Assembly (NCBI GenBank): GCA_964399075.1
Contig: CAYNPK010000002.1
Coordinates: 20,418 to 84,417, forward strand
DNA length: 64,000 nt
Source: an uncultured Candidatus Saccharibacteria bacterium
Lineage (GTDB): Bacteria; Patescibacteriota; Minisyncoccia; Phycocordibacterales; JACOZG01
Direction of reading: 5' to 3'
This document shows positions 1,849 to 20,682 of the stretch, in pieces. Positions within the stretch are counted from its first letter, which is position 1. Every line of letters starts with the position of its first letter. Below the pieces are notes generated by a model. That model saw only the letters and a list, made by a program, of their open reading frames with translations. It did not search any database and was not told the origin of the DNA. A program made the translations under genes and the position numbers.

Positions 1849-1986
1849 GGTGGGGGTTATTGAATTATATAATAATTGGGTGGTTGGGAAAAGCCAGTAT
1901 CGTGTGCTAGCTTGCCTTATTCTGTTATTTAGATTAGTATATGAATGGAGTTTGAGGTCTTTTGTTCGCGAAGGGAGGTGATATAC

Positions 1987-2130
1987 ATGAGTGAGTCGGA
2001 GATCCTTATTGTTCCCGATTCGAAGACGCACGCGAAGGTCGTCGAAAACATCGACTTGAAGGATGCCGTCGATGCACGACCATGCGATTGCGCCGCCTGC
2101 AGCTCCTGCAGGTGTACGCCGTGCAAGTAG
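1987..2130 (+). CDS. 47-aa Cys-rich peptide, candidate RiPP precursor (SCIFF/ranthipeptide-like: six Cys in C-terminal 14 residues)
   Basis: Internal ATG of track ORF 1945..2130, preceded by SD GGGAGGTG 6 nt upstream. Sequence MSESEILIVPDSKTHAKVVENIDLKDAVDARPCDCAACSSCRCTPCK. GC-rich relative to flanks. Sits immediately upstream of an HExxH gene and a radical SAM/SPASM gene. Confidence 0.5.
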   Translation: MSESEILIVPDSKTHAKVVENIDLKDAVDARPCDCAACSSCRCTPCK

Positions 2131-2216
2131 CATGGCTACACCAAAGAAAAGACCCGAGCATGTCTATAAACTGCTCTTTTTTATTTCTATTTTATTTAAA
2201 TTCAAGATTATTATCC

Positions 2217-2945
2217 ATGAACAAACTTCGTTTTTGCTTAAACAAAAAGCTTGATGAGTGCTTGGCCGGAGAATTTCTTAATGTGTCTGGAGGGGGGATA
2301 GATTTCGGCAAGGGGATTATTAAAATACATCCGCAACTGAAACCAGTTAAATCTCTACAAGATGCTATTCAGAAAGAAAAAGCTATTAGGATTTATTTTA
2401 ATCACTACTATCAAATTCATCGAGAAGAGATGGTTCGTAAGTTAAAGCTTGTGCGAAACTCTTGGAGTAAGAAAGAGCAGAAATATGTTGCGATAACTGA
2501 AGATTTTTTCGGCGGTTTTCGATTTTCAAAAGGAAAATATATTGCCTATGCCTCTATTATTGACTGCAATCCTCGGTTTTTAGACTCAAAAACATTTCAG
2601 TTTTTTTATAAAAAATCACTCGCTGACGCTATTCAGACTATTGCCCACGAACTTCTTCATTTTATTTTCTTTGATTTTGTTGAAAAGAGATTAAAAAAGG
2701 AAACGAAACATTTATCAGAGAATCAATTGTGGGACCTGTCAGAAATATTTAATGTGATCGTGCTTAAATCTCTGTCATACAAAAATATTATTAATCAACA
2801 ATTAGTAACTCCTTATCCTGATCACCAGCCTTATCTTCCTCAATTTGAAAAAGCGTATAAAAATTCTAAAAACGCCGAAGAATTTATTAGACGGGGTATA
2901 AGTATTATAAACACAAAAAATAGCGAGACGAGGCTGATAAACTAA
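2217..2945 (+). CDS. HExxH metallopeptidase-like protein, family A (ImmA/IrrE-like motif IAHELLHFIFFDF)
   Basis: Clear paralog of 5388..6038 (CNPRFLDSKTFQFFYKKS / IAHELLHF / LWDLSEIFNVI). Likely start is ATG 2217 (MNKLRF), not 2082. Confidence 0.6.
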   Translation: MNKLRFCLNKKLDECLAGEFLNVSGGGIDFGKGIIKIHPQLKPVKSLQDAIQKEKAIRIYFNHYYQIHREEMVRKLKLVRNSWSKKEQKYVAITEDFFGGFRFSKGKYIAYASIIDCNPRFLDSKTFQFFYKKSLADAIQTIAHELLHFIFFDFVEKRLKKETKHLSENQLWDLSEIFNVIVLKSLSYKNIINQQLVTPYPDHQPYLPQFEKAYKNSKNAEEFIRRGISIINTKNSETRLIN

Positions 2946-2969
2946 AAGAGGATTGTAATGGTATTTGAT

Positions 2970-2997
2970 TTGACAGGTGGGGTAAATTATTTATACT
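2970..2997 (+). promoter_or_regulatory. sigma70-like promoter TTGACA-16-TATACT upstream of rSAM gene
   Basis: TTGACA at 2970..2975 and TATACT at 2992..2997. Followed by SD GGGGTGA 5 nt before ATG 3061. Confidence 0.35.
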
Positions 2998-3060
2998 GTT
3001 TTTAGACTGCCGAAACTACGTTGTTTTGGCTTTGGTCTCTGACAACTAACGGGGTGACAT

Positions 3061-4122
3061 ATGGAAGATTCAATCAGTACGGCGATAGTGAAACCAACAG
3101 ATGGTTTTTGTAACTTGGCTTGTTCCTATTGCTACATGCAGAAGGTCTGTACTCGGGGAAAAATTCGGGTCATGAGTGCGCACGTTCTTGAAAACCTAAC
3201 TGATTTCTTCTGTTCCGAATTGGAAGAAATTGAGTTCATCTGGCATGGCGGTGAACCTCTTTTGGCCGGAGTGGATTTCTATCAAAAGGTAGTTCAGTGT
3301 CAGGAAAGCTGGATCGCCTCTGGTAAGAAAATCGCGAACTTCGTTCAAACCAATGGGGTTTTGTTAAATGGCAGGTGGGCGGATTTCTTTTCCCAGAACG
3401 GCTTTGTGGTTGGGGTGAGTCTCGATGGTCCGGCCCGCGTTCACGATGCGACCAGACGTTTCAAGAGTGGCGGTAGTTCCTTGGTGGCAACTATCAATGG
3501 AATAGAGGTGGCCCGAAAAGCGGGCATCTTTAATGGGGTGATTTGTTGCGTAAGTTCTCACAATTGCGAATTAGCGGAAGAGACCTTTGATTTTCTCTGT
3601 TCCCTGGGGATTAAGAGTATAAAATTTCTCAGGGTCAAGGGGGAATTTGAGGACAGCGTCAACCAAGGTCAATATGTTCGTTTTCTTACGGCCGTCTTAA
3701 GAAGGTGGCTGGAGGTCGATGATCCGGAGATTGAAATTAGAGACATCAAAAGTCTGATAGACATAGCCTTGGGGGGCAATTTCAGAGAATGTGTCTACAT
3801 GGGAAGGTGTGATAAATTCGTTACCGTTTACGGAGACGGATCTATTTACGCCTGTGATAATTTGCCCAAGGTTGATCGATTCTGCTTCGGCAATGTGGTC
3901 CAGACGAGAAAGGAGGTGTTGCTTGGACCAAAACTCCAAAACTTTCTTGCGATGATTGATGAACGTAAGAAGAGTTGCTCGTCTTGTTTTTGGTTTGAGA
4001 CCTGTCGCGGCGGTTGCGCCTATCGGTACCTACAAGAAGAAAAGGAGGAAAATCAATGTGAAGACTTGAAAGATTTGTTTGGCACTGTTCGTGATGTACT
4101 TAAAAGGCACCAGATGGTCTAG
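3061..4122 (+). CDS. radical SAM / SPASM-domain peptide maturase (rSAM no.1; AnSME/ranthipeptide-maturase-like)
   Basis: CNLACSYC (C-x3-C-x2-C) and GGEPLL. C-terminal auxiliary-cluster Cys motif CSSCFWFETCRGGCAYRY. Confidence 0.85.
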   Translation: MEDSISTAIVKPTDGFCNLACSYCYMQKVCTRGKIRVMSAHVLENLTDFFCSELEEIEFIWHGGEPLLAGVDFYQKVVQCQESWIASGKKIANFVQTNGVLLNGRWADFFSQNGFVVGVSLDGPARVHDATRRFKSGGSSLVATINGIEVARKAGIFNGVICCVSSHNCELAEETFDFLCSLGIKSIKFLRVKGEFEDSVNQGQYVRFLTAVLRRWLEVDDPEIEIRDIKSLIDIALGGNFRECVYMGRCDKFVTVYGDGSIYACDNLPKVDRFCFGNVVQTRKEVLLGPKLQNFLAMIDERKKSCSSCFWFETCRGGCAYRYLQEEKEENQCEDLKDLFGTVRDVLKRHQMV

Positions 4123-4157
4123 GTGCCAACTACTCTCTTTCGAGAAGGATTGGTGCT

Positions 4158-4298
4158 ATGAAAAAACGTGAATCTAAACTGAAAGTCCCCCGTGTCTTGC
4201 AGAAGGCTCGGCAAGTTGCCAAGTCTTTTGCGTCGAATTCGAGTTCGGGTTATACCAAGGGGCCTTGGGATCAGGGTCACTGGGCAAACCGAAAGTAA
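4158..4298 (+). CDS. 46-aa basic peptide (K/R-rich leader-like N-terminus, C-terminal GYTKGPWDQGHW); candidate rSAM substrate
   Basis: ATG 35 nt after the rSAM stop, with GAGAAGGA RBS 9 nt upstream. Sequence MKKRESKLKVPRVLQKARQVAKSFASNSSSGYTKGPWDQGHWANRK. An intrinsic terminator follows. Not in ORF track (<60 aa). Confidence 0.4.
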   Translation: MKKRESKLKVPRVLQKARQVAKSFASNSSSGYTKGPWDQGHWANRK

Positions 4299-4336
4299 GA
4301 GCGCGTATGATTATCGCGCAGGAAACTCAAACCAAA

Positions 4337-4370
4337 CGAGTAGTCTATCGGACTACTCGTTTTTATTTTT
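4337..4370 (+). terminator. rho-independent terminator (CGAGTAGTC-loop-GACTACTCG + T-run)
   Basis: Perfect 9-bp stem followed by TTTTTATTTTT. Closes the rSAM no.1 peptide operon and is convergent with the 4363..5247 gene. Confidence 0.5.
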
Positions 4371-5247
4371 GAATGTGTCCTTTTAGAACTTCGATTAGCG
4401 ATTCGAGGTAGGCATTATCAAGAGGAATTTTACCTTCCGTATACTTCTTAGACCAACCATACATGTGATAAGCACATATTTTTCTTGTTTGTGAAAAATC
4501 TAAAATGTTTTCAGTTTTTGCCAATCGTTCGTTTGTAATTTTTACCACCTCTATGCCAAGATATTTCTCTGCTAAATATCCTTCTGGTATAAATGAACTG
4601 ATTATTAGTTCTTCTAAAACAAGATAAGTGTTTTTTGTGCCATAGTTAACTAGATTAATTATCTCTGAATTTTTTTCTGTTACTTTTTTTATTTTTTCCC
4701 AAAGTTGATGATTTTTCTTCAATATCAAATGGAAAAATTCATGAGCCAATATCCCAATAGAAAATTTATCAGGAATAATGTTGTCAACTGGGCACTCCAA
4801 AACTATACTACTTCTATCCGGAGACCAAGAAAACCAAGCCGACAAATTATCATAAGGACTAATCACCAGATTAATTTGAATATCTTCGATCGAGAGATTA
4901 TCCATGCCCGCAAGCGAAAGAGCATCAGCAATCACCAGGTCCAATGTCTGTAAATTATCTTGATAGTATTTGGAAAGTAGTTCGAGTTTTTTTAGAGCAG
5001 TAAGCCAAAATTTATCAAACTCTTGCTCAAAAGGAGCGATGGCTTTTCTAAATTCGGATAACTTATCTTGCCCAACCATCTCTTCAAGGCTAGACCAAAA
5101 AGTCTCGTCATTTTCGGTAGCCAGAAAGAGTTCAATATTTTGAACATCCTCTGTTTTTAATAGATCTTTGATTGTTTGTTCCTTTTTAATATCAACCAAA
5201 AAGTGCAAAAAGTTGACATTTTTTGAAATACTAAAATTTAATGACAT
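4363..5247 (-). CDS. HExxH metallopeptidase-like protein, family B (ILAHEFFHLILKKNH)
   Basis: 294-aa ORF with a single HEXXH. The 5' UTR contains GGAGGA and derives from the N-terminal coding sequence of the 8545..9363-type gene. Confidence 0.55.
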   Translation of the reverse strand: MSLNFSISKNVNFLHFLVDIKKEQTIKDLLKTEDVQNIELFLATENDETFWSSLEEMVGQDKLSEFRKAIAPFEQEFDKFWLTALKKLELLSKYYQDNLQTLDLVIADALSLAGMDNLSIEDIQINLVISPYDNLSAWFSWSPDRSSIVLECPVDNIIPDKFSIGILAHEFFHLILKKNHQLWEKIKKVTEKNSEIINLVNYGTKNTYLVLEELIISSFIPEGYLAEKYLGIEVVKITNERLAKTENILDFSQTRKICAYHMYGWSKKYTEGKIPLDNAYLESLIEVLKGHIQK

Positions 5248-5266
5248 TTTTTATTCAGAATATCCT

Positions 5267-5340
5267 CCAGTCTGGGAACTGTCTTAGGATTTTACCATAG
5301 AATGGCTAAAATTAGAAGGGGTGGTTATTGAATTATATAA
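5267..5340 (-). promoter_or_regulatory. repeated promoter/5'-leader module (copy 2) with extended -10 TATGGTAAAAT
   Basis: Core ATGGCTAAAATTAGAAGGGGTGGTTATTGAATTATATAA at 5302..5340. On the minus strand it reads CCCCTTCTAATTTTAGCCATTCTATGGTAAAAT, then a 45-nt leader with GGAGGA before ATG 5247. Confidence 0.4.
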
Positions 5341-5387
5341 CACATGATAGTTTACACAACTTCTCACGCTTTTTTATTTTTGCCACA

Positions 5388-6038
5388 CTAGTTATTAATA
5401 TATCTAAGGTATTCCAAGCTTGTTTTTACAAAATTTACAACATTTGGTTCTTTTGTCCAAATCCTTTTTATTTCTTCCAACTTATTTTTCAGATCAGGGT
5501 AAAATAGAAGTTCTTCTGCTCCGATAGATTTTTTAATTGATGGAAGATTAAGAAAAATCACATTAAATATTTCGGATAATTCCCACAAATTATTGTCATT
5601 CTCAATTTTTAAATCACCACAAAAATCATAAAAGGCAAAGTGGGTCAGTTCGTGGGCGATAACTTCTTTTCTCATGTCATGCGAACGTTTGTAATAAACT
5701 TGGAAACTTTTATTCTCTAGATAGCGTGGATTGCAATTAAAGATAGACAAGTAACAAGTATAATTTTTTTTGCTGTAATCTTGGCCGAAATATTTCTGTA
5801 ATTCTAAAAATAAAGATTCTTTTATTTCTCTAAAACATAGCTCGGTATCCTCAAGAGTATTTTTCAAACTATCTTGATTCGCAGTATAAAAATTATCTAT
5901 ATATTCAATATAGTTTTCTTTAGTTATGTCCGGATGATCATCACGTATCTTCTTACCAAAATCAGCGCCACCAACAATAGCATCACAAAAAGCCAAATAT
6001 ACTTCTTTATCTAATTGTTTATTGAGCAGGGTGTTCAT
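5388..6038 (-). CDS. HExxH metallopeptidase-like protein, family A paralog (IAHELTHFAFYDF)
   Basis: Homologous to 2217..2945. Its 3' end (5388..5485) is duplicated at 12788..12950. Confidence 0.6.
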   Translation of the reverse strand: MNTLLNKQLDKEVYLAFCDAIVGGADFGKKIRDDHPDITKENYIEYIDNFYTANQDSLKNTLEDTELCFREIKESLFLELQKYFGQDYSKKNYTCYLSIFNCNPRYLENKSFQVYYKRSHDMRKEVIAHELTHFAFYDFCGDLKIENDNNLWELSEIFNVIFLNLPSIKKSIGAEELLFYPDLKNKLEEIKRIWTKEPNVVNFVKTSLEYLRYINN

Positions 6039-6792
6039 TGCTCAAGTATCTTTTCCATGCTTTTTCCGCTTCGGTCGGGCTTATGCCGTATATTTCTTGA
6101 AAAATATCACTATTCTCATTTTTTGTTTTGAATCTATTGGTATTCTGATAAAGAGTTTTAAATTTTTCTTTACCATATTGTTCAATCAAGAATTTTGTAA
6201 ACGACCCAACAAAACAGTAGTAATAAAGAGCGTGATCGTCATCCAGCTCTTTCCATTTTGCGTGATCCATCATTGAATCTACTGGGGGCAGGAGCCCTTT
6301 ATTTGAAGCCTCATAAGCGAGTTTGTCGTGGTCTTCTCCATGCCAGCCGTGGCCAACCATATATTCTGCCAATCCTTCTTGAAAAAAAGCAATTGAAAGT
6401 CCCCACGGTAAGGATAATAAATGTGTATCTTCATGTTCTCCAATTGGTTTAATGTCTTTTGTATACAAAACATGCACAATAAAATCTTTCCAAATGGCTT
6501 GAGCATACCAATCATCACCCATTAATTTTTTCTTTGTTTTCAGATCAGGATAAAAATAATAAGTGATTTTTCTTTCTGGAGATAGAATTTCTAAAAATTC
6601 AATGATTTTTTTGAAAGCTCTTCCCTGTGTTTCTGAAATTTTTGTAATTTCTTTTTCCGCGATTGTTTTAGGTAAATAGTAAAAAATATAGTGTTCAGTT
6701 TCATGTTTGAGCCAAGAGATGTCATTTTTGAAATCCTCTTTGTACGTTGGGAGATTTTGGGTAATTTCAGGTGTGCTCATAATATTAAACAT
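6019..6792 (-). CDS. HEDTH-motif metallopeptidase-like protein (family H)
   Basis: 257-aa ORF with GEHEDTHLLSL followed by EGLAEYMVGHGWHGEDHD. Overlaps 5388..6038 by 20 nt, so probably operonic. Confidence 0.5.
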   Translation of the reverse strand: MFNIMSTPEITQNLPTYKEDFKNDISWLKHETEHYIFYYLPKTIAEKEITKISETQGRAFKKIIEFLEILSPERKITYYFYPDLKTKKKLMGDDWYAQAIWKDFIVHVLYTKDIKPIGEHEDTHLLSLPWGLSIAFFQEGLAEYMVGHGWHGEDHDKLAYEASNKGLLPPVDSMMDHAKWKELDDDHALYYYCFVGSFTKFLIEQYGKEKFKTLYQNTNRFKTKNENSDIFQEIYGISPTEAEKAWKRYLSNEHPAQ

Positions 6793-6795
6793 TAT

Positions 6796-6829
6796 AACAA
6801 AAAATAGGCTGCTTTTCCAGGCAGCCTAT
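6796..6829 (-). terminator. rho-independent terminator after rSAM no.2
   Basis: ATAGGCTGC-loop-GCAGCCTAT hairpin followed by TTTTTTG on the minus strand. Confidence 0.45.
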
Positions 6830-6832
6830 TGG

Positions 6833-8143
6833 TTAGGAGTTGTACTCAAGAAACAACAAACCTTCGTTTAGAGTGGCGATTAGCTTGCGTTGACAGAACC
6901 TCTTTTCGAATCCTTTCTCTCCGTTTTCCACGATCGAGTCATGAATGCACCCACCGCCACATATTGGCAAATAGGGACATTTCTCTTCTACACACTTGTC
7001 TGTTCGAGAAAAATTCTCAAAACGAACATCTTGTGTATATGAGGTGGGAAAATCGGAAACGTGACCGAAATCGAAAGCGGGCCGTCCAACCGTACAGAAG
7101 CATTTTTGAAGTGCTCCATTCGGCTGAAGTACTGCCGAATGCTTTGCGATTGCCACGCACCATGGCCCCACAAGAAACTCGTCAGGTACAGCAAACCCAC
7201 ATTCTTTAGCGACACGCCAAGCAGCTACAGCTTTTTCGGCGGTCATTACTTCGGCCAAGGCTTTCGTGGTAGTGCCAAGAGATGGAACAACAAGACCTAG
7301 ACTTAAATGAATCTTGTTACCATAGCCAAGCTTTGCCAAGAAGCGTATAAGATCTGGCAACGATTCAGCGGTTTCTGTATCGAGAGAGAGTCTCAAGTTG
7401 ATCTTTGGCACGTATCCACCATCGAGCAACATTCTCACATTCGTGATAATCCTATCGAAAGTGGGTTGTTTGTCGTGGCCAACTCTACGGGTGTCATGCA
7501 ATTCTCTCGGACCGTCCAGGGTAATTTGCACTCGCCGTAAATCGTATCGTTTGAGTGCGATTGCCGTATTAGCGTCGAGAAGCAAGCCGTTAGTAGTGAT
7601 CTCGGTCCAATATTCTATTCCTTTCTTTTCAGTAAGCAACTTGATTCTTGTTAGGGCTTCTTTCGCCAAGTGTTTCACCAGAAGAGGTTCTCCTCCAAAT
7701 AAAACGCACTTCAGGGAAGCAACCTCTGGATTGGCTTCAAGGTATTGGTCAAGCCAGTGAACAGACTGACAAAGAACCGCCTCCGTCATCAATCCCAGTC
7801 GTCTTACTCCACGCTCGAAGCAATAGTGACAGTTAAGTTGACACTTCATGGTTGGCAGGAGATGCAATGTGAAGAGTTTTGCCTGTTCATTCCTTGTGTG
7901 GCGAAAGAAGTTACGATACTCGCGGAACTCGTCTTTGTCTTCTGGAACAACAAATCCATTATTGCCAGAAAGAGTTTCGATGGAATCATGGCTAGGCAAT
8001 GTTTGATCATGAAGCCACTTATCCAAAGATTCAATTGTTTTGCCATCAAGCATCGCGACTGCCCCAGTGAGATAATTCTTCACCAGAACATTCCCATCGG
8101 CAAAAGGGTAACGAACCGTAAATGCACTCCATTTGTACCTCAT
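6833..8143 (-). CDS. radical SAM / SPASM-domain peptide maturase (rSAM no.2)
   Basis: CQLNCHYC, FGGEPLL, and C-terminal CVEEKCPYLPICGGGCIHDS. Start is probably ATG 8143 (MRYKWSAF); the track uses GTG 8206. Confidence 0.85.
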   Translation of the reverse strand: MRYKWSAFTVRYPFADGNVLVKNYLTGAVAMLDGKTIESLDKWLHDQTLPSHDSIETLSGNNGFVVPEDKDEFREYRNFFRHTRNEQAKLFTLHLLPTMKCQLNCHYCFERGVRRLGLMTEAVLCQSVHWLDQYLEANPEVASLKCVLFGGEPLLVKHLAKEALTRIKLLTEKKGIEYWTEITTNGLLLDANTAIALKRYDLRRVQITLDGPRELHDTRRVGHDKQPTFDRIITNVRMLLDGGYVPKINLRLSLDTETAESLPDLIRFLAKLGYGNKIHLSLGLVVPSLGTTTKALAEVMTAEKAVAAWRVAKECGFAVPDEFLVGPWCVAIAKHSAVLQPNGALQKCFCTVGRPAFDFGHVSDFPTSYTQDVRFENFSRTDKCVEEKCPYLPICGGGCIHDSIVENGEKGFEKRFCQRKLIATLNEGLLFLEYNS

Positions 8144-8215
8144 GGTAGGACACATCCTTTCTAAAAAAATGTCCCGCAAGCTACACGCCTGCAGGACATC
8201 ATGCACTGCGACTCA

Positions 8216-8356
8216 CTAGTAGCCACAAGTGTCTTTGCCCAACCTGACCGGAGTGCGAAGGTCTTGGTTACCTGCTTTGAGCAGGATAACACCAGAGCTT
8301 TTCACACTAGCCGATCTTACAGGCCGAGTTGCCGGTTTGTCGTTCTTGGTAACCAT
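8216..8356 (-). CDS. 46-aa basic peptide upstream of rSAM no.2; candidate precursor
   Basis: ATG at 8356 with AGGAGG 8 nt upstream. Sequence MVTKNDKPATRPVRSASVKSSGVILLKAGNQDLRTPVRLGKDTCGY. Stop lies about 10 nt before the rSAM ORF. Same length and character as 4158..4298. Confidence 0.4.
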   Translation of the reverse strand: MVTKNDKPATRPVRSASVKSSGVILLKAGNQDLRTPVRLGKDTCGY

Positions 8357-8544
8357 ATGGCTTTCCTCCTTTCTTGCCTATTACCCTCGACTGCTCTTTG
8401 GGTTGAGAATCCAACACGGATTCTCATTTAACCTCATTGACCAAAAGAGTAATGTAAGGAAATAGGACTTGGGGTTTGATGTCGAAGATCTAAAATAGCC
8501 AACAACATCTTATCACTATTTTCCCTATTTTGTCAATAAAACAC

Positions 8545-9363
8545 TCACCCCATCTTTTCTTCCAGCAGCTTCTTTGTTTCATTGGGGTGACACATCCAGA
8601 AGTCTTCTCCCTCTATGTCGGTTGGCTCGAAGGCGATGATAAGCGGTTTGTGACCCAGTGTTTTATAGGCCTCAATAAAAGCTGGAAGAAACACTTCTCT
8701 GGTGAAGGAGATTTCTTTGTGATCAAGCATAAAGTTTTCAAACAAGACGCCGTTTCTAATGAATAATGATAGGAAGGGAGTATAGTATTCATTGGCGGTC
8801 ACGCCATGATTTTTAAACCACTTAGACGCATCGTAAAAAGAATCTCTGCGAAGTAATTTGTAAGTTTTTCTAAAAAGTCCGTGATGGAATCCTACCAGAG
8901 ATTGGTTCCATAAAGTTTTAACTTTTGAAATCTTTTTTCCTACAAATTCATTAAATTCAATGGCGTTTATTCTTTCTATTTTCATCCCCCCCTTCTTCCC
9001 TCTGCCTTGGAAAAAACTCAACTTGCCCAGGGAGTGTTTCCAGTCGTTGTTAGAAGTAAATTTATCATGCCGATATTCCCAAAACAGGAGCTTAGTATCT
9101 TCCAACGCATCAGCAATGCTGACAAATCTTCGGATTTCGTAATTGGGAGTAATCACCTGACGGAAAATTACCGCCCGCGGGTCTTTCTTGAAGGGCTCGG
9201 GGATGTCGTTCTTGAGAATTTTCAGCACTTTTTTCTCAAGTTCTTTGTCTTTTCTCCGCTCTTTTAACTCCCCAAGAGCCACCGACAGGGGAGTATAAAT
9301 AGTTTCTTCAAACAACTTCCTATTCGAGATGATTTTCGGAATATCCTCCAGTCTGGGAACCAT
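8545..9363 (-). CDS. hypothetical protein, family C (no recognisable motif)
   Basis: 272-aa ORF. Its 3'-terminal sequence recurs as truncated remnants at 15030..15112 and 16628..16660. Confidence 0.5.
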   Translation of the reverse strand: MVPRLEDIPKIISNRKLFEETIYTPLSVALGELKERRKDKELEKKVLKILKNDIPEPFKKDPRAVIFRQVITPNYEIRRFVSIADALEDTKLLFWEYRHDKFTSNNDWKHSLGKLSFFQGRGKKGGMKIERINAIEFNEFVGKKISKVKTLWNQSLVGFHHGLFRKTYKLLRRDSFYDASKWFKNHGVTANEYYTPFLSLFIRNGVLFENFMLDHKEISFTREVFLPAFIEAYKTLGHKPLIIAFEPTDIEGEDFWMCHPNETKKLLEEKMG

Positions 9364-9404
9364 CTCAAGATTCTACCACAGAATGGCTAAAATTAGAAGG
9401 GGTG
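9364..9404 (-). promoter_or_regulatory. repeated promoter module (copy 3), extended -10 TGGTAGAAT only 6 nt from ATG (leaderless arrangement)
   Basis: Minus strand reads CCCCTTCTAATTTTAGCCATTCTGTGGTAGAAT cttgag ATG(9363). Confidence 0.4.
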
Positions 9405-9441
9405 TTGCGTGCTCTGGTAGATTATTGCTATTCTTTGAATA

Positions 9442-10372: not shown

Positions 10373-10381
10373 GTAAATCTC

Positions 10382-12102: not shown

Positions 12103-12204
12103 TACGCCTTCCTTTTCAGTTTGTGAATGTACTATGAAGAGGAAAACTTCCTCTTTCTATTAAAGAAGATAACATAAATAAGTTTTTAAGTAAATAGTAC
12201 GCGT

Positions 12205-12779
12205 CTAGAAATTACTAGCTTTTTCGCCCAGCCTCTCTAAGGCTAAGACTTCATATCTCGGAATTTTGTAACCGCCTCTCTTTTTAATTTCTGCTAGTAA
12301 CAGCTTCATGTAATGCTGAATCGCTCCGAATTTTTCGTATTTTTTATCTGTTTCTGAGGAACACTAAGAATATCTCCCAGAACCTTTCGGCAGTTCTCTG
12401 ATCCACATTCACATTTCATTTTCCATTCTGTTGGAGCCATTGTCATGGAGTAGTCGTAGGTTATTTCTTCTCCCGTATCTATATCCCTAAGCGCAAAAAG
12501 TTCACTCTTTTTTCTTATACCTCCGCTCGGGTCACAGCTGTGATTAAAAGTGCGAGACAGTTCATCAAGATCAATATAGGTTTGTCTGCCAATCTGAAAT
12601 GGGTCATCGATATTTTCTTTGCCGGAAATGACACTGTCTACAAGATTTTTTAGAGTCAATTTTTTCCCATCAAGAACGTGGATAATTTCACCCTTCTTTA
12701 TGTCCTGACCAGCAAAAACTCCCTTACCATACTTGTCGGTATTCTTAACAATTAATTTTTTGTCTGAAAATGAAGTCAT
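12205..12779 (-). pseudogene. SET-domain protein paralog carrying a -1/+1 frameshift in an A6 run (pseudogene or sequencing error)
   Basis: Residues 1-157 (MTSFSDKKLIVKNTDKYGKGVFAG...NHSCDPSG...KCECGSENC) are in one frame to 12306. The C-terminal MKLLLAEIKKRGGYKIPRYEVLALERLGEKASNF continues in another frame to stop at 12205. The switch is at the homopolymer near 12343..12349. Confidence 0.5.
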
Positions 12780-12787
12780 GGTGGGGG

Positions 12788-12950
12788 GGTTATTGAATTA
12801 TATAACACATGATAGTTTACACAACTTCTCACGCTTTTTTATTTTTGCCACACTAGTTATTAATAGATCTAAGGTACTCCAAGCTTGTTTTTACAAAATT
12901 TACAACATTTGGTTCTTTTGTCCAAATCTTTTTTATTTCTTCCACAAACT
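12788..12950. repeat. near-identical copy (~165 nt) of 5321..5485: promoter-module core plus the 3' coding end of a family-A HExxH gene (gene remnant)
   Basis: ggttattgaattatataacacatgatagtttacacaacttctcacgc...ttggttcttttgtccaaatc is shared with few mismatches. No intact ORF here. Confidence 0.6.
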
Positions 12951-12995
12951 TTTTTAAATACGGGTTCATGTTTCTATTATATGATATGTGTAGCC

Positions 12996-13622
12996 CTAGC
13001 TATTTCTTATTATCTTTTCTAAGTTAGGGTAATGATCCTCAAATGCCTTTTTGATTTTCTCTGTCTCATCTATCCCAATAGGTATCTTTTGCCACCTATG
13101 AAGTTCTGGAAAAGCTTTATCAAACAATAATTCAACTAAAGTCTCCTTCTGCCATTGTCCTACTTTGTATTTATCTATCAAAGGTTGGATGTGGAGATGG
13201 ATAGTTTCGTGCAAGAGGGTGTTGATAATGCCCCCCGTGTTTTTCTTAGAAATATTTATGATTACTCCATTCGGCGGTGAATAACTGCCACCGATGCCAT
13301 ATTTTGTTAAAACTATTTCTATTTCAGGGATCGGTTCTAATTTCAATTCTTCAATTAGTTTTAATAATCTGCTTTTTTGAGATTCTATCCCTGCTCTTGC
13401 TTCTTGCTCTATGTTTAAAAAAGTTCCCGCCGAATATTCATTATCTATCCTTTTTTCTAAAGCCTCTTCGGTATCGTTTTCTAAATTTTCCATATCCATT
13501 CCTGTCGGGAAAGTTAGATTATCCAATTTGTAGCCATTAGCTTTAAACCAGTCCAACCTCTTGATTGTCTGGAGGATTCTCGTTTTCTCTAATTTTGGTG
13601 AATATTTAAAGCTGAAGTTCAT
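12996..13622 (-). CDS. HExxH metallopeptidase-like protein, family D (LLHETIHLHIQP)
   Basis: 208-aa ORF with a single HEXXH. Confidence 0.55.
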   Translation of the reverse strand: MNFSFKYSPKLEKTRILQTIKRLDWFKANGYKLDNLTFPTGMDMENLENDTEEALEKRIDNEYSAGTFLNIEQEARAGIESQKSRLLKLIEELKLEPIPEIEIVLTKYGIGGSYSPPNGVIINISKKNTGGIINTLLHETIHLHIQPLIDKYKVGQWQKETLVELLFDKAFPELHRWQKIPIGIDETEKIKKAFEDHYPNLEKIIRNS

Positions 13623-13654
13623 GGTTATGTATTAATAATAGACAAAAAAATGGC

Positions 13655-13690
13655 TCCGGACAAATAATGTTCGGAGCCATCAGGTTATTA
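13655..13690 (-). terminator. rho-independent terminator closing rSAM no.3 - peptide operon
   Basis: ATGGCTCCG-loop-CGGAGCCAT perfect 9-bp stem with TTTTTTT on the minus strand. Confidence 0.5.
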
Positions 13691-13700
13691 CCGCTGTGCC

Positions 13701-13859
13701 TCATAGGCAATCAGGGCAATCGCAATCGGGAGGATTGGGACAATCGTCCGGGTCCGGTTGGCAGTACCCATCGCTCGACAAAGACCGAGCGCGTAGGTTT
13801 TGCACGGGTAAATCTCTTGAGATACCCGGCGTCGTCATCATTTCCGCTAGTGCTTCCAT
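13701..13859 (-). CDS. 52-aa Asp/Pro/Cys-rich peptide, candidate ranthipeptide-like RiPP precursor
   Basis: ATG 13859 preceded by GGAGAAAGGAGAG, 27 nt after the rSAM no.3 stop. Sequence MEALAEMMTTPGISRDLPVQNLRARSLSSDGYCQPDPDDCPNPPDCDCPDCL. GC-rich. Below the ORF-track size cutoff. Confidence 0.5.
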   Translation of the reverse strand: MEALAEMMTTPGISRDLPVQNLRARSLSSDGYCQPDPDDCPNPPDCDCPDCL

Positions 13860-13886
13860 GATGCCAACTCTCCTTTCTCCTGGAAC

Positions 13887-14915
13887 TTACCGTCCAGGTA
13901 CTAGGGTTTGAGCGTCGAAGACTGTCCACATCAGAGGACATCCTCCTCCGCAGTAATCCTTATGCTCACAATCGATGCACCTGTTGGATGGGTATGAGTT
14001 GATCCGGTCGTGATTGGTCGACACCTCCTCACTGTTCAATAGCCTTAGGAGTGAGTTTGCGTCATGAAAATCTTGATCGATTTCTCCTGTTGGAAATTCT
14101 GACATTCCATTACACGCAAGGAGGTTGCCAGCTGGGTCGAATATTACTCCCGTTCTGTTTTGGAATTGACATCCCGTGCAGAGTTGTCGCCTCTCCATGA
14201 GTAGACTAATAAAATCCCTTGGCCACACACAAAGTGGTGTTTTGAGAGAGAGGACCATCCTCCCATCCATCAGTTCGTGAAGCTTCTGGTATTGCGACAC
14301 GATATCTGTGACCAAATCAGCTATTGGGATCATTCCAGTTGTGCTAGGCCCCCGTTTGCCGACTGAAGGAGTGCAAGGACTAATGCTCACGCTATTTGCT
14401 CCACACTCTCGCGCAAAGGTCACAAGTTGGAGAAGTTTACCTCGAACGAAAGAGTTGTAGACCAGGCTAGCCCCGCATCCAAATTCTGAGGCTAATCGAG
14501 ATAGTCCAAGTCTCAATTGTTGCCAGTTGGATATGTGTGCCAGACTTTTACCTGACTCCTCATCGAAAGCTTTGATGGAGGGACTTACCCGATCATTTGG
14601 TGATTTTAGATATCCTGACCAGAAAAGATCGTCAGAAAATCTCTCTCCGTTTGTGACGATTGTGGTCTTGATTCCACAAGCTCTTGACTCCCTGTTGAAT
14701 CTTAAAAGAGGTTCCCAGAGCGTGGGTTCCCCCCCGATCAGGTCAATCTGCTTTATCTCCAAGTCTTTAATTATTGACAGAAGCCTTAGAGATAGTGGTA
14801 GGCTCATTGTTTTGCCACCGTCAAAACCTTGGTTTCTTGCATAACACCATTTACAACGGAAGTTGCACGACAAGTTTGTTGTAATCCAGGCAACCTTTGG
14901 TTTGGCTGTAAGCAT
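13887..14915 (-). CDS. radical SAM / SPASM-domain peptide maturase (rSAM no.3)
   Basis: CNFRCKWC, IGGEPTL, and C-terminal CIDCEHKDYCGGGCPLMW. RBS GGGAGGA 8 nt before ATG 14915. Confidence 0.85.
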   Translation of the reverse strand: MLTAKPKVAWITTNLSCNFRCKWCYARNQGFDGGKTMSLPLSLRLLSIIKDLEIKQIDLIGGEPTLWEPLLRFNRESRACGIKTTIVTNGERFSDDLFWSGYLKSPNDRVSPSIKAFDEESGKSLAHISNWQQLRLGLSRLASEFGCGASLVYNSFVRGKLLQLVTFARECGANSVSISPCTPSVGKRGPSTTGMIPIADLVTDIVSQYQKLHELMDGRMVLSLKTPLCVWPRDFISLLMERRQLCTGCQFQNRTGVIFDPAGNLLACNGMSEFPTGEIDQDFHDANSLLRLLNSEEVSTNHDRINSYPSNRCIDCEHKDYCGGGCPLMWTVFDAQTLVPGR

Positions 14916-15029
14916 TTGAGTTTCCTCCCAATATCAAAGAACAAAATGAGATCGGGACCATCCTGAATCTCGTCTAAGATTAAGACTACGTCTGCTATTT
15001 TATTTTGTCAAGATTATGTATCCGTCTAC

Positions 15030-15112
15030 CCCATCTTTTCTTCCAACAGCTTCTTAGTTTCATTGGGATGGAACATCCAGAAGCCCTCTCCCTCTATGTC
15101 GGTTGGGTAGAA
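15030..15112. repeat. truncated remnant of the 3' end of a family-C gene (cf. 8548..8640)
   Basis: ccccatcttttcttccaacagcttcttagtttcattggg...ccagaagccctctccctctatgtcggttgg is about 90% identical to the 8545..9363 C-terminal coding sequence. Confidence 0.5.
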
Positions 15113-15169
15113 TTAGTGTAATATAAAGATATAGACAACTGTATTTTTTGCAAAATCACTCGAAAAGAA

Positions 15170-15460
15170 TTGCCAAGTGAGATTGTCTTTGAGGACGATG
15201 ATTTTCTCGCTTTTTTGGATATTGAACCGAAAACTCTTGGTCATACTATTTTAATACCCAAACAACATTGTACCCAATTAGAGAGTCTTTCTCGGCCACT
15301 GCAAGAAAAATTGATCAATTTGATCAGTAGACGTTCGGCTGAATTGAAAGAGAAATACAAATACACTAGTACTGTAATTCTAATCAATAACGGCGAAGCG
15401 GTTGAAGACATTAAACATTTCCATGTTCATATCTACGGTTGGCCAGCTACAGAGCTTTAA
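15170..15460 (+). CDS. HIT-family (histidine triad) nucleotide hydrolase; N-terminus disrupted, non-ATG start
   Basis: HFHVHIYG HIT motif. The ORF is open back to 15122 (IKDIDNCIFCKITRKELPSEIVFEDDDFLAFLDIEP) with no ATG/GTG; the first start-like codon is TTG 15170. The upstream sequence is the family-C remnant. Confidence 0.55.
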   Translation: MPSEIVFEDDDFLAFLDIEPKTLGHTILIPKQHCTQLESLSRPLQEKLINLISRRSAELKEKYKYTSTVILINNGEAVEDIKHFHVHIYGWPATEL

Positions 15461-15591
15461 TTTGTCATTTTCCACCAAACAAATCAATTAGATTGACTAG
15501 TGAAAGCCAGATTGTATAAAAAACAAAGAAATGTTAGTCTGTAATTGGTCAGATTGGCTCATTGTGAAGTACCATTGAACCCAGAAAGGGG

Positions 15592-15975
15592 GTGATAAAA
15601 TGCTATAATTTATTTATGGATAACGATGTTGGTCAATTCAAAAAGGAATTGAAACTTGTCAACGATGCTTTGGGATCAGAAGTAATGGAAGAAAAAATAA
15701 TTAAATATCTTACTCCTCTTGTGAAGCGTGTCGCTCAAGAGTTCATCGATGATTACCAACGCCAGAAAAACCTTAAACTAACTGGACAAGAGAAAGCTTT
15801 GGCAACAAAAGCTGGATGGGCGCATCTCCATTTGGCTTTACGCAAATACGCCGAGACGGCAATAGACATGGCAGAGGGGAGGAAGAAGCCATACACTTTC
15901 AGTGCTTATTTTACTTGGTTTGTAAAACAAGGAGTATCTGAATATTTGCAGTTTCAATATTTATCAAAAACTTAA
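15592..15975 (+). CDS. hypothetical protein
   Basis: 127-aa ORF with no motif recognised. Confidence 0.35.
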   Translation: MIKCYNLFMDNDVGQFKKELKLVNDALGSEVMEEKIIKYLTPLVKRVAQEFIDDYQRQKNLKLTGQEKALATKAGWAHLHLALRKYAETAIDMAEGRKKPYTFSAYFTWFVKQGVSEYLQFQYLSKT

Positions 15976-15984
15976 GATCATTCT

Positions 15985-16254
15985 CTAGGCTTTTATTGTC
16001 TCAAAATGTAGAACGACTTCTTTTGGTATGGTCATTGCACCGCGAAGGTCGTCATTTTGATTAGTTACTATCTCTCTAGCCAAAACATAATTATCAGGAT
16101 TATCTTCAATCAAAAAACCGACTACGTGGAAAATATGCAATGGGAAATTCTTATTTGGCGTACTTGGTTTCTCCATCTGTTGATCCCAGAGTACGATATC
16201 TTTGTAAACCAAGAAAACTATTGGGTATTTAGCTGTGTGTTTGTTTGTGGGCAT
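15985..16254 (-). CDS. hypothetical small protein (no Cys; MPTNKHTAKYPIVFLVYKD...)
   Basis: ATG 16254 lies downstream of the intrinsic terminator at 16283..16320. The ORF is in frame with the GC-rich segment upstream but is probably a separate unit. Confidence 0.3.
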   Translation of the reverse strand: MPTNKHTAKYPIVFLVYKDIVLWDQQMEKPSTPNKNFPLHIFHVVGFLIEDNPDNYVLAREIVTNQNDDLRGAMTIPKEVVLHFETIKA

Positions 16255-16282
16255 AATATAACTTAAAATTAATAAAAAAAGG

Positions 16283-16320
16283 TGGCTCTGCATGGTGTAT
16301 GCTCGGCCACCTTTTTGTTG
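16283..16320. terminator. bidirectional intrinsic terminator (A-run, GGTGGC..GCAT-ACACC-ATGC..GCCACC, T-run)
   Basis: Two-tier hairpin flanked by AAAAAAA and TTTTTGTT. Confidence 0.55.
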
Positions 16321-16497
16321 AAAGGGGTCATTCATTTGCCCCTCGTCGAACCACGGCTTCCGCCGCCGGAACCGGCATTGCCGGTGCATGCCGCCTTTTC
16401 CACCCTTGGAATTGCGCACCACGGGGAACGGCGTAGCCTTGTCGCTACCTGGATAGCCCATGCTGTCCGGGCGCCGCGCACAATCGTAGTTGGCCAT
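16320..16497 (-). other. GC-rich (~60% vs ~38% background) segment with strong SD + ATG but no stop before an intrinsic terminator: candidate structured leader/ncRNA or horizontally acquired small ORF
   Basis: AGGAGGTGATAAGC ATG at 16497; putative translation MANYDCARRPDSMGYPGSDKATPFPVVRNSKGGKGGMHRQCRFRRRKPWFDEG... The terminator 16283..16320 lies inside the open frame. Confidence 0.3.
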
Positions 16498-16627
16498 GCT
16501 TATCACCTCCTTTCACTGACCTAAAAAAGTACTACCTTGCCTAGGCACTGTGTCTAGGCAACTGGAAGTTAGTATAGCATGAGGATTGTAATTGTAAAGA
16601 ACTTGTGTTTATAACCAAAACTAATCT

Positions 16628-16715
16628 CACCTCATCTTTTCTTCCACAAACTTCTTAGTTTCATTCTCAAGATTCTACCACAGAATAGCTAAAATTAGAA
16701 GGGGGAGTGCAAAGA
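16628..16715 (-). promoter_or_regulatory. promoter module copy 5 (TGTGGTAGAAT) fused directly to a 3'-terminal remnant of a family-C gene
   Basis: ctcaagattctaccacagaatagctaaaattagaaggggg next to catcttttcttccacaaacttcttagtttcatt. Confidence 0.4.
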
Positions 16716-16888
16716 TTTGGTGAGATGACAGCCTTGTTATTTTTTGAATCGGCGTGAGGGGCTGTTGAATAATCAAGAATAAAGTACTAAGTAAACTGCA
16801 AAGGATGTCCTTGATATTTTGCTACCCAGATGTTAATTTGTAAATAGTGTATGGTTGATTCAATTGGTCTTTAAAAAAGGAAGAAGTT

Positions 16889-18199
16889 ATGAAATTATCG
16901 CGTTTTAATGTTTGGTCGCTTTGTGACCATGGTCTCATTATCTTTAACACTCTTACTTGCGCCTTGTCAGTTTTCGAAGGGGATTACATTGAAAAGGTGT
17001 TCCGGGCTCTCAAGAATGAGGACATTGACAGTATTCCAGGAGAATTTTTGCTGGCAATGTCTGAGGATGGTTATTTAGTTGAGGACGAACTCGATGAACT
17101 TGGATTTATCAGAGATGCTTGCTGTGAAAGACGGTCTAAAACGGACGAGTACTCCCTGTGTGTGATTCTTACAATGGATTGCAACTTGGATTGCGCCTAT
17201 TGCTTCCAGAAGCATTCCAAAGAAAATCTATCACAGGTTGAAGTTGCCAAGGTTTTGAACATGTTTCGAGGGATAGCAACCAAGGCAAAGAGGATTGAAG
17301 TTGACTGGTTTGGTGGCGAGCCACTTCGCTCGTTCAGTGTTCTGAAATCCATGAATGATCAGCTTATGGCTATTGCTCAAGCTTCGGGTGTAGATTATCA
17401 GCATTCAATTACTACTAATGGTTACTACCTAAGCCATAAAGTAATCACCTATCTAGCCAAAACTCCTCTCTCGATTCTCACGATCACTCTGGATGGTCCC
17501 GCAGAAACTCACGATCGTAGTCGGCCAACAAAAAGTGGTCAGCCAACATTCCTTAAGATTCTCGAGAATGTTCAGATGGCGATTAAGGCTGGTCTGAATA
17601 TTTCTATTCGGGTTAACATTACTACTCTGAATGTTGATCGGGTTCATGAGTTGTATGATGTCTTGGAGTCGCGTGGTCTCAAGAACAAAGTTGAGGTTAA
17701 TCTCCAGGCAGTGGTTTCTTCTGACGTTAGATCGTGTGAGGAATACTGTCTTTCTGGACACGACTTCGCTTGTCGATCAATGAGGATATACAAGTGGGCA
17801 GCACAAAAAGGATGGGTGGTTTTTCCTCCCACGGAAAAATTGAGGGCTTTGGGATTTTGTGTTGGAGAGTACCCGAATCGCTTCATCACTGATCTCCATG
17901 GGAACTTGTATCGATGTAGTCAAATGACGGACGACGAGATGGTCGGCGCCCTAGATGACGATGGCTCAATCATTCTTCGGGAGACGGAGAATGAACTTTG
18001 GATTAACAAAGATCCTCTCAAGTTTCCTGAATGTCAAGGATGCTCAATCTTACCCATTTGCATGGGCGGTTGTAATCTTAAGCGGCGCGCCGGCAAAAAG
18101 TCAGTAGACTACTGTCTCGACTGGAAACATGATTTACCCGGCTTGCTTGAGGTCTTAGTGCTGAATGAGAGAAATATCGCCCTCTCCCAGCTGGATTGA
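16889..18199 (+). CDS. radical SAM / SPASM-domain peptide maturase (rSAM no.4)
   Basis: CNLDCAYC, FGGEPL, and C-terminal CQGCSILPICMGGCNLKR. RBS AAGGAAGAAG before ATG. Confidence 0.85.
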   Translation: MKLSRFNVWSLCDHGLIIFNTLTCALSVFEGDYIEKVFRALKNEDIDSIPGEFLLAMSEDGYLVEDELDELGFIRDACCERRSKTDEYSLCVILTMDCNLDCAYCFQKHSKENLSQVEVAKVLNMFRGIATKAKRIEVDWFGGEPLRSFSVLKSMNDQLMAIAQASGVDYQHSITTNGYYLSHKVITYLAKTPLSILTITLDGPAETHDRSRPTKSGQPTFLKILENVQMAIKAGLNISIRVNITTLNVDRVHELYDVLESRGLKNKVEVNLQAVVSSDVRSCEEYCLSGHDFACRSMRIYKWAAQKGWVVFPPTEKLRALGFCVGEYPNRFITDLHGNLYRCSQMTDDEMVGALDDDGSIILRETENELWINKDPLKFPECQGCSILPICMGGCNLKRRAGKKSVDYCLDWKHDLPGLLEVLVLNERNIALSQLD

Positions 18200-18250
18200 A
18201 GAATGGTTGCTTTGTTGGTACTCTTAAGTGTTGGAAAGGAGGTGATGAAC

Positions 18251-18331
18251 ATGAAGCGCGTTAAAAAAGCACGGGCGACAAAAGTAGTTACGCCACGTGC
18301 GACGTTCTCATCCTGCTGCAGAAACAAGTGA
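18251..18331 (+). CDS. 26-aa basic peptide with C-terminal SSCC; candidate precursor
   Basis: GGAAAGGAGGTG 8 nt before ATG 18251. Sequence MKRVKKARATKVVTPRATFSSCCRNK. A strong terminator follows. Confidence 0.4.
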   Translation: MKRVKKARATKVVTPRATFSSCCRNK

Positions 18332-18347
18332 TTTTGCAGCGCAGCCA

Positions 18348-18382
18348 AGAGGCACAAGCTAGAAAGCTTGTGCCTCTTTTTC
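18348..18382. terminator. rho-independent terminator (13-bp perfect stem AGAGGCACAAGCT/AGCTTGTGCCTCT, loop AGAA, TTTTTC)
   Basis: Closes rSAM no.4 and the peptide gene. Also sits at the 3' end of the convergent gene 18359..18808. Confidence 0.6.
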
Positions 18383-18808
18383 ATGTTTCTCGTCTCTTCT
18401 TCCCAAGAACGCCGCTACGACATTGTCGACAAATTCTTCAAGTTTGTTTAAGTAAAGTTCGTGATTTTGTCCGAATTTTTTATGATTTTCCAATATTAAA
18501 TCCTCACTGAATTTGTCGTAGTCATTTATTAAAACATGGACTAATTCGTGAACTAAGGTATGTTCTTCGTCACACCAAGGATTCCACGTTAATTGTATGG
18601 TGGCGATTTTCTTTTGAGAATTAGCTTCGAAGCCGCCACTTTGTCGCCATCCATTTTCACGCCAAAAATCCACAATCTTGAGATCTAATTTCCAATCGGC
18701 CATGCCCATTTTCTCCTGCCACTTCCTGAGCAATTTTTCCAGTTCGGGCACAGCTAAACCCCTTTTCTTGTTTTCAAATCCGTAAAATATTTTACGATCT
18801 CCTTCCAT
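18359..18808 (-). CDS. HExxH metallopeptidase-like protein, family E (HTLVHELVHVLIND; SprT/DUF45-like)
   Basis: 149-aa ORF. Confidence 0.55.
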   Translation of the reverse strand: MEGDRKIFYGFENKKRGLAVPELEKLLRKWQEKMGMADWKLDLKIVDFWRENGWRQSGGFEANSQKKIATIQLTWNPWCDEEHTLVHELVHVLINDYDKFSEDLILENHKKFGQNHELYLNKLEEFVDNVVAAFLGRRDEKHEKEAQAF

Positions 18809-18870
18809 AAATTTAAGTATAACAACTAAGCAAATAATTATGCAACAATTATTCTCGAACTATCTTCCAG

Positions 18871-18909
18871 ATGGCTAAAATTAGAAGAGGGGGTTATTGA
18901 ATTATATAA
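18871..18909 (-). promoter_or_regulatory. promoter module copy 6
   Basis: atggctaaaattagaagagggggttattgaattatataa lies upstream of minus-strand ATG 18808. Confidence 0.35.
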
Positions 18910-20681: not shown

Positions 20682-20682
20682 G

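Follow-up and report, generated by a model that had tools for sequence, protein, structure and literature searches.

What does it mean when the same short promoter-like sequence turns up at six places, before genes or before pieces of genes, in a patescibacterial genome? Genomes of this group, also known as the candidate phyla radiation (CPR), are small, and the usual description is of streamlined genomes poor in repeats. The question is raised by a stretch of 64,000 nucleotides (the window) of contig CAYNPK010000002.1 from an uncultured Candidatus Saccharibacteria bacterium. A sequence-only reading had described the recurring core as a promoter and 5'-leader module, and its surroundings as a cassette-shuffling hotspot marked by recent segmental duplication and decay. 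We propose, with a probability of roughly 0.7, that accessory genes accreted here by recombination anchored in conserved backbone genes, together with decay by deletion. The recurring sequences would then be ordinary scars of recombination, duplication and deletion and not a new kind of genetic element. Our argument draws on the repeats, their mosaic boundaries, the coding remnants between them, the synteny of the backbone and the agreement of Logan assemblies.

Comparison of the window with itself, by blastn and with a repeat finder, recovered the listed repeats. The six copies of the core, at 1855, 5302, 9383, 12788, 16685 and 18871, are all real and non-random. They are placed where promoters are expected, but the module is not one unit. 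Alignment shows a composite of two unrelated minus-strand promoter pieces, X and Y-Z, which are combined differently from site to site and fused at two of them. X (TTATATAATTCAATAACC) is the predicted -10 region of a SET-domain gene. Y (TTCTAATTTTAGCCAT) is the first part of the putative promoter Y-Z of famB, an intact conserved hypothetical gene of 272 amino acids (8545..9363, minus strand), and in the fused copies it follows X after a run of C. The X half, GGTTATTGAATTATATAA, occurs four times without a mismatch (18/18 positions; 1855, 5323, 12788 and 18892), and the Y half, ATGGCTAAAATTAGAAGGGG on the plus strand, four times with 0-1 mismatch (5302, 9383, 16685 and 18871), against a chance expectation of 0.01 for each. 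Only 5302-5340 and 18871-18909, which are 95% identical, hold the full 39-nt core, with the C-run as the join; the other four sites hold one half each.

The six copies, numbered c1 to c6 and all on the minus strand, show how the pieces are used. The native famB promoter is c3 (9364..9402), in which Y, here CCCCTTCTAATTTTAGCCAT (9402 to 9383), is followed by Z, TGGTAGAAT (9378 to 9370), then by CTTGAG and the ATG at 9363. Copies c1 (1852..1877) and c4 (12785..12810) consist of X and the C-run, followed by ACC and the ATG of a SET-domain gene; in c1 the X piece, with its TATAAT -10 region, lies 17 nt upstream of the SET1 ATG (1848), and c4 leads to the ATG of SET2 at 12779. In c2 (5254..5345) X (5345 to 5320), the C-run, Y (5321 to 5302) and Z (TGGTAAAAT, 5297 to 5289) run into a remnant of famB codons 1-10 (5282 to 5254), just upstream of a DUF5700-like HExxH gene (4363..5247). 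This remnant matches famB at 26/29 nucleotides with the ATG changed to ACA, so that the start codon is dead, and 5254-5323 and 9335-9404 are 90% identical over 70 nt. Copy c5 (16626..16704) is a famB copy that has lost its body. Its Y-Z (16704 to 16665) runs straight into the final ~13 codons and the stop of famB (16665 to 16626), with 97.5% identity of 16665-16704 to 9363-9402 and 87.5% of 16626-16665 to 8544-8583. The last copy, c6 (18871..18914), is an X-Y junction without Z; its X overlaps the stop codon of a methyltransferase gene (18902..19471), and the HExxH gene downstream of it (18359..18808) has a predicted promoter of its own, TGTTATACT-N8-ATG. The claim that the core always abuts a minus-strand gene start therefore holds for five of the six copies, and fails for the one at 16685, which precedes only the famB remnant.

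Most of the repeated fragments come from famB, and its start codon decides how c2 is to be read. In an alignment of 31 homologs Met1 is nearly invariant, and the length of the open reading frame (ORF) agrees with that of the database protein, so the ATG at 9363 is the true famB start. It follows that 5254-5282 is a coding remnant and not a leader. The description as a 5' leader has to be given up, given also that the famB ATG comes 6 nt after the -10 box. The gene is widespread, with 184 homologs, the nearest 61% identical, and where they are named they belong to Candidatus Paceibacterota or Patescibacteria. We take the window itself to come from a Candidatus Paceibacterota genome. The protein has no sequence match in Pfam, NCBIfam or the PDB, and its AF2 model is confident (pLDDT 92.7, pTM 0.89) yet finds no Foldseek match in the PDB; famB may represent an undescribed fold or family. 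Each of the five relatives' loci that we inspected has a single famB, in fixed synteny and beside a sensor histidine kinase gene. We considered famB as a mobile or nuclease gene, and rejected this in view of its conserved single-copy position in the five loci and of the model without a structural match.

Are X and Y-Z promoters at all? Both c3 (9378 to 9370) and c5 (16680 to 16672) carry TGGTAGAAT, and c2 (5297 to 5289) carries TGGTAAAAT; each has the form of an extended -10 element, with TGn directly before a TAnnnT hexamer. The famB start reads TAGAAT-CTTGAG-ATG, with the hexamer ending 6 nt before the ATG and without a Shine-Dalgarno motif. Such motifs are nearly absent upstream of 54 genes in the window, a TAnnnT box begins at -12 or -13 for many first-in-operon genes, and the spacing of famB is shared by more than ten other gene starts. 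A -10 box, often with TGn, ends 6-8 nt before the ATG at, for example, 42196, 51074, 55413, 57186 and 62681 on the plus strand and 19490, 6799 and 1249 on the minus strand. This geometry suggests that leaderless mRNAs are widespread in this genome. The TATAAT of X lies farther away, 17-19 nt before the SET start codons. Judged by consensus and spacing, the modules are probably active promoters and the famB-type starts leaderless, and at c2 the placing of the famB promoter before the DUF5700-like HExxH gene would be a case of promoter capture. Extended -10 (TGnTAnAAT) promoters with leaderless mRNAs are well documented for mycobacteria (e.g. PMC3898074 and PMC4633059). The likeness extends to the upstream TG, the end of the -10 box 6-7 nt before the start codon, the missing Shine-Dalgarno motif and the recurrence across the window; the difference is that here the promoters are assigned by geometry alone. 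In the literature on leaderless mRNAs and Shine-Dalgarno usage in CPR bacteria we found nothing directly relevant. A structured RNA leader or riboswitch was rejected: there is no Rfam match at the modules (gathering thresholds on the window, E<=1 on 1-26 kb), and they fold no better than shuffled sequences.

If the pieces are promoters, the cores might bind a common regulator, or form a promoter consensus of unusual strength, and be kept by selection in a small regulon, with the gene fragments around them incidental. The perfect agreement of the X copies and the near-perfect agreement of the Y copies, against 87-93% for the neighbouring remnants, would fit such a regulon, as would the position of five of six copies before a gene start. 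However, beside each core lie homologous coding remnants, always of the same gene pair, c5 drives only a famB remnant, and the gene downstream of c6 has a -10 box of its own. All repeats of this type lie within 1-24 kb of the window, and neither the self-comparison and repeat finder nor scans with X and Y found anything comparable in the other 40 kb, which hold the str/S10/spc ribosomal-protein operons, a tmRNA and two tRNAs. Outside the window, an exact/IUPAC scan for Y gave 2 matches in 185,579 GTDB species-representative genomes and 6 in the JGI metagenomes, all of them chance matches in unrelated sequence, and the module sequence appears to be private to this organism. The DNA folds of the six copies are not better than shuffles (z -1.25 to +1.6) and share no hairpin or palindrome. 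We therefore regard a regulon as quite unlikely.

The coding remnants point more directly to duplication and decay. A second 3' stub of famB, at 15028..15112 on the minus strand, comprises the last 28 codons and the stop; it is 89% identical in nucleotides to 8547-8631 (tblastn: 28 amino acids, 89%, E=8e-11) and sits immediately upstream of the radical-SAM gene 13887..14915. The recurrence of the famB 3' end as stubs, one of them fused to a promoter copy, is thus borne out by this stub and by c5. The near-identity that had been seen between 5321..5485 and 12788..12950 extends to 93% over 183 nt (5318-5500 versus 12783-12965, E=6e-66). The first copy of this repeat, D2 (5318..5500, minus strand), consists of the 3' end of the intact gene HExxH_A2 (5388..6038), a 47-nt spacer and X. 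The second (12783..12972, minus strand) has the same spacer and X behind a 3' stub of only 38 codons (12972 to 12856), in agreement with the earlier description. By tblastn (12963-12856) the stub covers residues 181-216 of the HExxH gene, with 83% amino acid identity over 36 residues. We also observed that the stub (12856-12972, minus strand) is an ORF, MNPYLKKFVEEIKKIWTKEPNVVNFVKTSLEYLRSINN*, whose ATG at 12972 is preceded by TATAAT-N6, the local leaderless geometry, and that its differences from the intact gene at the 5' edge are mostly non-synonymous; this remnant might still be expressed.

Two further families combine intact and damaged copies. The intact SET1 gene (1276..1848, minus strand; 190 amino acids, Pfam SET at 8e-16) adjoins the backbone histidine kinase gene, and its paralog SET2 (12229..12779, minus strand) has a frameshift near codon 150: its ORF is 12306..12779, and tblastn homology to SET1 runs on in another frame to 12229. 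The pair is 73% identical in nucleotides overall (1298-1872 versus 12230-12805). X and the first ~100 nt are 93-95% identical, synonymous sites included, and the rest only 53-82%, mostly 60-80%, so that this 5' patch (1778-1877 and 12709-12810) looks like a gene-conversion tract. The third CYTH gene (about 22780 to 23367, minus strand) is split over two frames. Over its first 44 nt (23324-23367) it has 93% identity to the CYTH2 start (20643-20686). The remainder is very divergent and barely alignable, and the 5' patch would again fit a short conversion tract. The claim of intact and frameshifted copies is right for SET2 and for this third CYTH gene; CYTH1 and CYTH2 are both intact, and the damaged CYTH copy lies outside the 1849-18909 range for which the claim was made. 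The truncated or frameshifted remnants of famB, HExxH_A, SET and CYTH, of high identity to intact copies, are what segmental duplication with pseudogene decay is expected to leave. As a separate observation, the HIT gene that adjoins the famB 3' stub (15113-15460, plus strand) has its conserved N-terminal CIFCKI upstream of any ATG, GTG or TTG. An ATA stands where a leaderless ATG is expected (TAATAT-N6-ATA), which suggests that its start codon has mutated.

What the remnants lie in becomes clear from a comparison with five relatives. There the order is EamA, a small gene, famB, in two cases SET in antisense, and a HisKA/HATPase_c kinase, with gaps of tens to a few hundred nucleotides. In our window the sensor histidine kinase gene (1..1233, minus strand, running off the window) is 47-51% identical over ~410 amino acids to its counterparts in loci L003-L009 by tblastn, and u113 (24584..24925, minus strand) is 46-60% identical to the small gene directly before famB. 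A third backbone gene, u165 (24963..25460, minus strand), reaches 30%. Since u113, famB and the kinase are orthologs of genes that are contiguous in the relatives, the backbone of the window has been interrupted twice, by 15.2 kb between u113 and famB and by 6.7 kb between famB and the SET1-kinase pair. The result is a lineage-specific island of about 22-23 kb (1849..24583), absent from the relatives, in two parts (9405-24583 and 1849-8544) that flank the intact famB. At its far end, the spacer after u113 (24530-24583, minus strand) begins CCCCCTTCT, has 38 nt to the next ATG (39 nt in Y-Z) and resembles the u113-famB spacer of relative L008. Tentatively, it may be the original famB promoter site, or an old copy, which has diverged and been taken over by a transglutaminase-like gene.

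The island is organised in frames of similar ends and dissimilar contents. On the minus strand one unit reads famB 3' stub, rSAM3, HExxH_C, HExxH_A stub, 47-nt spacer, X and SET2, and colinear with it a second reads famB, a 46-amino-acid ORF, rSAM2, a peptidase-MA-like gene, HExxH_A2, spacer and X. The flanks of these two units are 89-93% identical in nucleotides, and the interior genes have no detectable similarity. A third unit runs from Y-Z and famB codons 1-10 through the DUF5700-like HExxH gene and, on the other strand, a 46-amino-acid ORF, rSAM1 and HExxH_A1, to X and SET1. Two more segments, rSAM4/HExxH_D and HIT/u119/u170, have the famB-promoter remnants c5 and c6 as their frames. To annotate the cargo, the main genes predicted in the first 26 kb were scanned with Pfam, NCBIfam and PADLOC. 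It includes four radical-SAM/SPASM genes (at 3061, 6833, 13887 and 16889), which resemble maturases of ribosomally synthesised and post-translationally modified peptides (RiPPs) without reaching a family cut-off, and about seven small HExxH/peptidase-like genes. Besides the three CYTH genes and SET2 there are HIT, NUDIX, Ham1, APH, methyltransferase, DHOD-like, guanylate-kinase-like and transglutaminase-like genes. GC content at third codon positions is mosaic, with 0.48-0.61 in the backbone, 0.27-0.37 in the HExxH, CYTH, SET and nucleotide-enzyme genes and 0.44-0.52 in the radical-SAM, DHOD-like and guanylate-kinase-like genes. Paralogs among the cargo are only 23-33% identical in amino acids, in contrast to 87-97% nucleotide identity of the frames. 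The notion of a recent segmental duplication is therefore right for the frames, which derive from flanking backbone genes, and not for the cargo.

The 5' and 3' stubs with 87-97% nucleotide identity, the frameshifted paralogs, the microhomology deletion in the C-run and the promoter before a different gene all recall segmental duplication with pseudogene decay. But the genes between the stubs, at 23-33% identity, are no recent duplicates, and simple duplication and decay does not explain the cargo. A closer parallel is offered by additive flexible genomic islands, in which accessory cassettes accrete in tandem between conserved backbone genes. Shared features are a lineage-specific, compositionally mosaic insert that separates genes contiguous in relatives, direct repeats from flanking genes at the internal junctions, and divergent, analogous cargo between near-identical frames. 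Our locus differs in having no integrase or tRNA target, in repeats that derive from a protein-coding gene and two promoters, and in its host, a small CPR genome; to our knowledge, repeat-rich islands have rarely been described in such genomes.

From these observations we infer an order of events, with segments either duplicated in situ or arriving with cassettes from related strains. Segments of the locus would have been duplicated repeatedly, or imported with divergent cassettes, by general recombination, homologous or microhomology-driven, anchored in famB, HExxH_A and SET. The promoter pieces would have been copied as passengers, along with codons from the beginning or end of famB and with the 3' end of the HExxH gene. 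Redundant backbone bodies would then have been deleted, leaving the famB 5' and 3' stubs, the promoter-to-tail famB derivative at c5 and the HExxH stub. In the alignment, AATAACCCCCCCACC ATG on the X side and GCAACACCCC TTCTAA on the Y side can together account for the X|Y junction of c2 and c6, and we suggest a deletion between the two C-runs, later copied once more. If it took place in an interval like that from c4 to c3, the deleted part would equal the SET2, guanylate-kinase-like, DHOD-like, zinc-ribbon and CYTH1 genes. At their 5' ends, the SET and CYTH paralogs would still be kept alike by short gene-conversion tracts, and at c2 the famB promoter would now face another gene. Import of cassette alleles through homologous anchors would explain the divergent cargo in one step; the alternative is duplication in situ followed by turnover of the cargo.

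Could a dedicated site-specific system have done the same, integron-like or by integrase-mediated tandem accretion at famB, with the stubs and cores as att-type sites? Direct repeats of target-gene ends at cassette borders do resemble attL/attR scars, and the X|Y junctions recur at a C-run. Yet the island proteins scanned contain no integrase, transposase or resolvase domain, and the modules have no significant DNA secondary structure. The boundaries of the repeats differ at every copy, and the cassettes lie in mixed orientation with their own promoters. The 3' stubs of famB lie upstream and not downstream of the intact gene, with 5' stubs on both sides of it. We consider a dedicated system very unlikely. 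As to integron arrays in particular, the short recurring sequences that separate small gene cassettes in a hotspot are a likeness, but here the cassettes carry promoters and face both ways, and the recurring sequences are fragments of neighbouring genes. An integron was rejected for lack of an IntI-type recombinase among the proteins scanned and of attC-type folded imperfect inverted repeats in the modules. An insertion sequence or a miniature inverted-repeat transposable element was likewise rejected, as there are no inverted termini, no transposase in the proteins scanned, different boundaries in each copy and no copies elsewhere. A defence island was set aside too; the sole PADLOC matches are weak, viperin-like and attributable to the radical-SAM fold. 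The earlier term of a shuffling hotspot is thus apt for recombination, duplication and decay with genuine remnants, and goes too far if it implies dedicated machinery, of which recombinase, att-like structure and copies in other genomes give no sign.

The contig derives from a metagenome, and strain variants or chimeric joins might have been stitched in series at the repeat boundaries. We compared the window with Logan contigs from three further runs of one study (SRR11845627, SRR11845628 and SRR11845629), retrieved by exact-protein look-up. They are 100% identical to the window over 1811-5352, 5434-12767 and 12899-24915, the last continuing about 4.5 kb into the backbone. Inside single contigs lie c1, c2 (in L013), c3, c5 (in L010-L012), c6, the stub at 15028, the junction of the HExxH stub with HExxH_C and the CYTH frameshift, with the CYTH3 region 100% identical in L010. 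All five contig ends are found exactly 30 nt into perfect repeats of at least 31 nt, namely 5323-5400 and 5413-5463, repeated at 12788-12865 and 12878-12928, and 1807-1840, repeated at 12738-12771, where the contigs break inside SET1. A k=31 graph should break in just this way if a sequence is really present in two contexts. In favour of an artefact one can still cite the breaks at the D2 and SET 5' repeats, which leave the order of the three large segments as the only part not confirmed by the Logan contigs. The branch points, however, require each repeat in at least two contexts, and with either phasing of D2 there is one intact HExxH_A gene and one stub. With every unique segment reproduced, the concern that the repeats are artefacts is largely answered, and we think this explanation the least probable of all.

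Several points weigh against our preferred reading of accretion and decay. The short-k Logan contigs do not verify how the segments on either side of the two D2 copies and of the SET 5' repeat are linked. The agreement among the copies of X and Y, higher than in the adjoining remnants, hints at some selection on these pieces and not at purely neutral decay. The promoters were assigned from consensus and geometry only, and a generic sigma-70 -35/-10 scan, uninformative alone, was not enriched over shuffles. There is no close relative, the nearest famB homolog being no closer than 61%. Finally, SET is antisense to famB in the relatives and only 32% identical, so that its status as a backbone gene is tentative.

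A more far-reaching possibility, which we regard as unlikely, is that the locus is an accretion site independent of recombinases. RiPP-like cassettes (radical-SAM/SPASM maturase, HExxH peptidases and a peptide of ~46 amino acids) would enter from related strains through the famB and SET/HExxH_A anchors and stack in tandem. Leaderless units of promoter plus start codon would be portable expression modules, redeployed before new genes by recombination or gene conversion.

Some features of the cargo deserve separate mention. Two 46-amino-acid ORFs adjoin radical-SAM/SPASM genes, one before rSAM2 (8356 to 8216, minus strand) and one directly after rSAM1 (4158-4298, plus strand). The former has a promoter-like site, TTGACA-18-TAAGAT, upstream, and a 14-bp hairpin with a T-run (8200-8168) follows just before rSAM2. 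Together, 8168-8356 (minus strand) and rSAM2 have the classic layout of precursor, attenuator and maturase known from RiPP operons, and the two ORFs may be precursor peptides. A stretch at 16275-16600 (minus strand) has a GC content of ~55-60% in a region of ~40%. It carries a strong promoter-like site (TTTACA-16-TG-TATACT, 16598-16571), a hairpin with a T-run, and an ATG at 16497 that follows an unusually strong Shine-Dalgarno motif (AAAGGAGGTGA). Within the ORF lies a terminator-like hairpin (~16310-16275). There is no Rfam match; the stretch could encode either a small Arg/Gly-rich protein or a precursor peptide for the divergent rSAM4, or else specify a non-coding RNA. The 119-amino-acid ORF at 15616-15975 (plus strand) has a weak match (E 0.08-0.8) to sigma-70 region 2 (FSAYFTWFVKQGVSEYL) and could represent a piece of a sigma factor or a small sigma-like protein. 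In the relative L003/L004 (4785-7817) genes for a YcaO-nitroreductase fusion and a DUF2268 protein (HExxH-type) lie a few genes upstream of famB. The famB locus may be prone to acquire RiPP-like and metallopeptidase genes in more than one lineage.

Two RNA genes of the window are worth recording. A tRNA-Ile with anticodon TAT (UAU) is encoded at 59160-59233 (minus strand). Such a tRNA is unusual in bacteria, where AUA is normally read by a lysidine-modified CAU tRNA. The tmRNA at 51619-52011 (plus strand; Rfam 137.9 bits) has the predicted tag peptide ANSSDDSVVSPYFAPSYALA.

We do not see a new principle in this locus, but a known kind of genome plasticity. It is a well-resolved case of a CPR genome building and eroding an accessory island, with promoters and gene ends left behind as scars, and its use lies in the documented case and in guiding the annotation of stubs and pseudogenes in metagenome-assembled CPR genomes. 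It also gives sequence-level support for a leaderless, extended -10 promoter architecture in this lineage. Lastly, it draws attention to four divergent radical-SAM/SPASM and HExxH cassettes, which may encode modified peptides.

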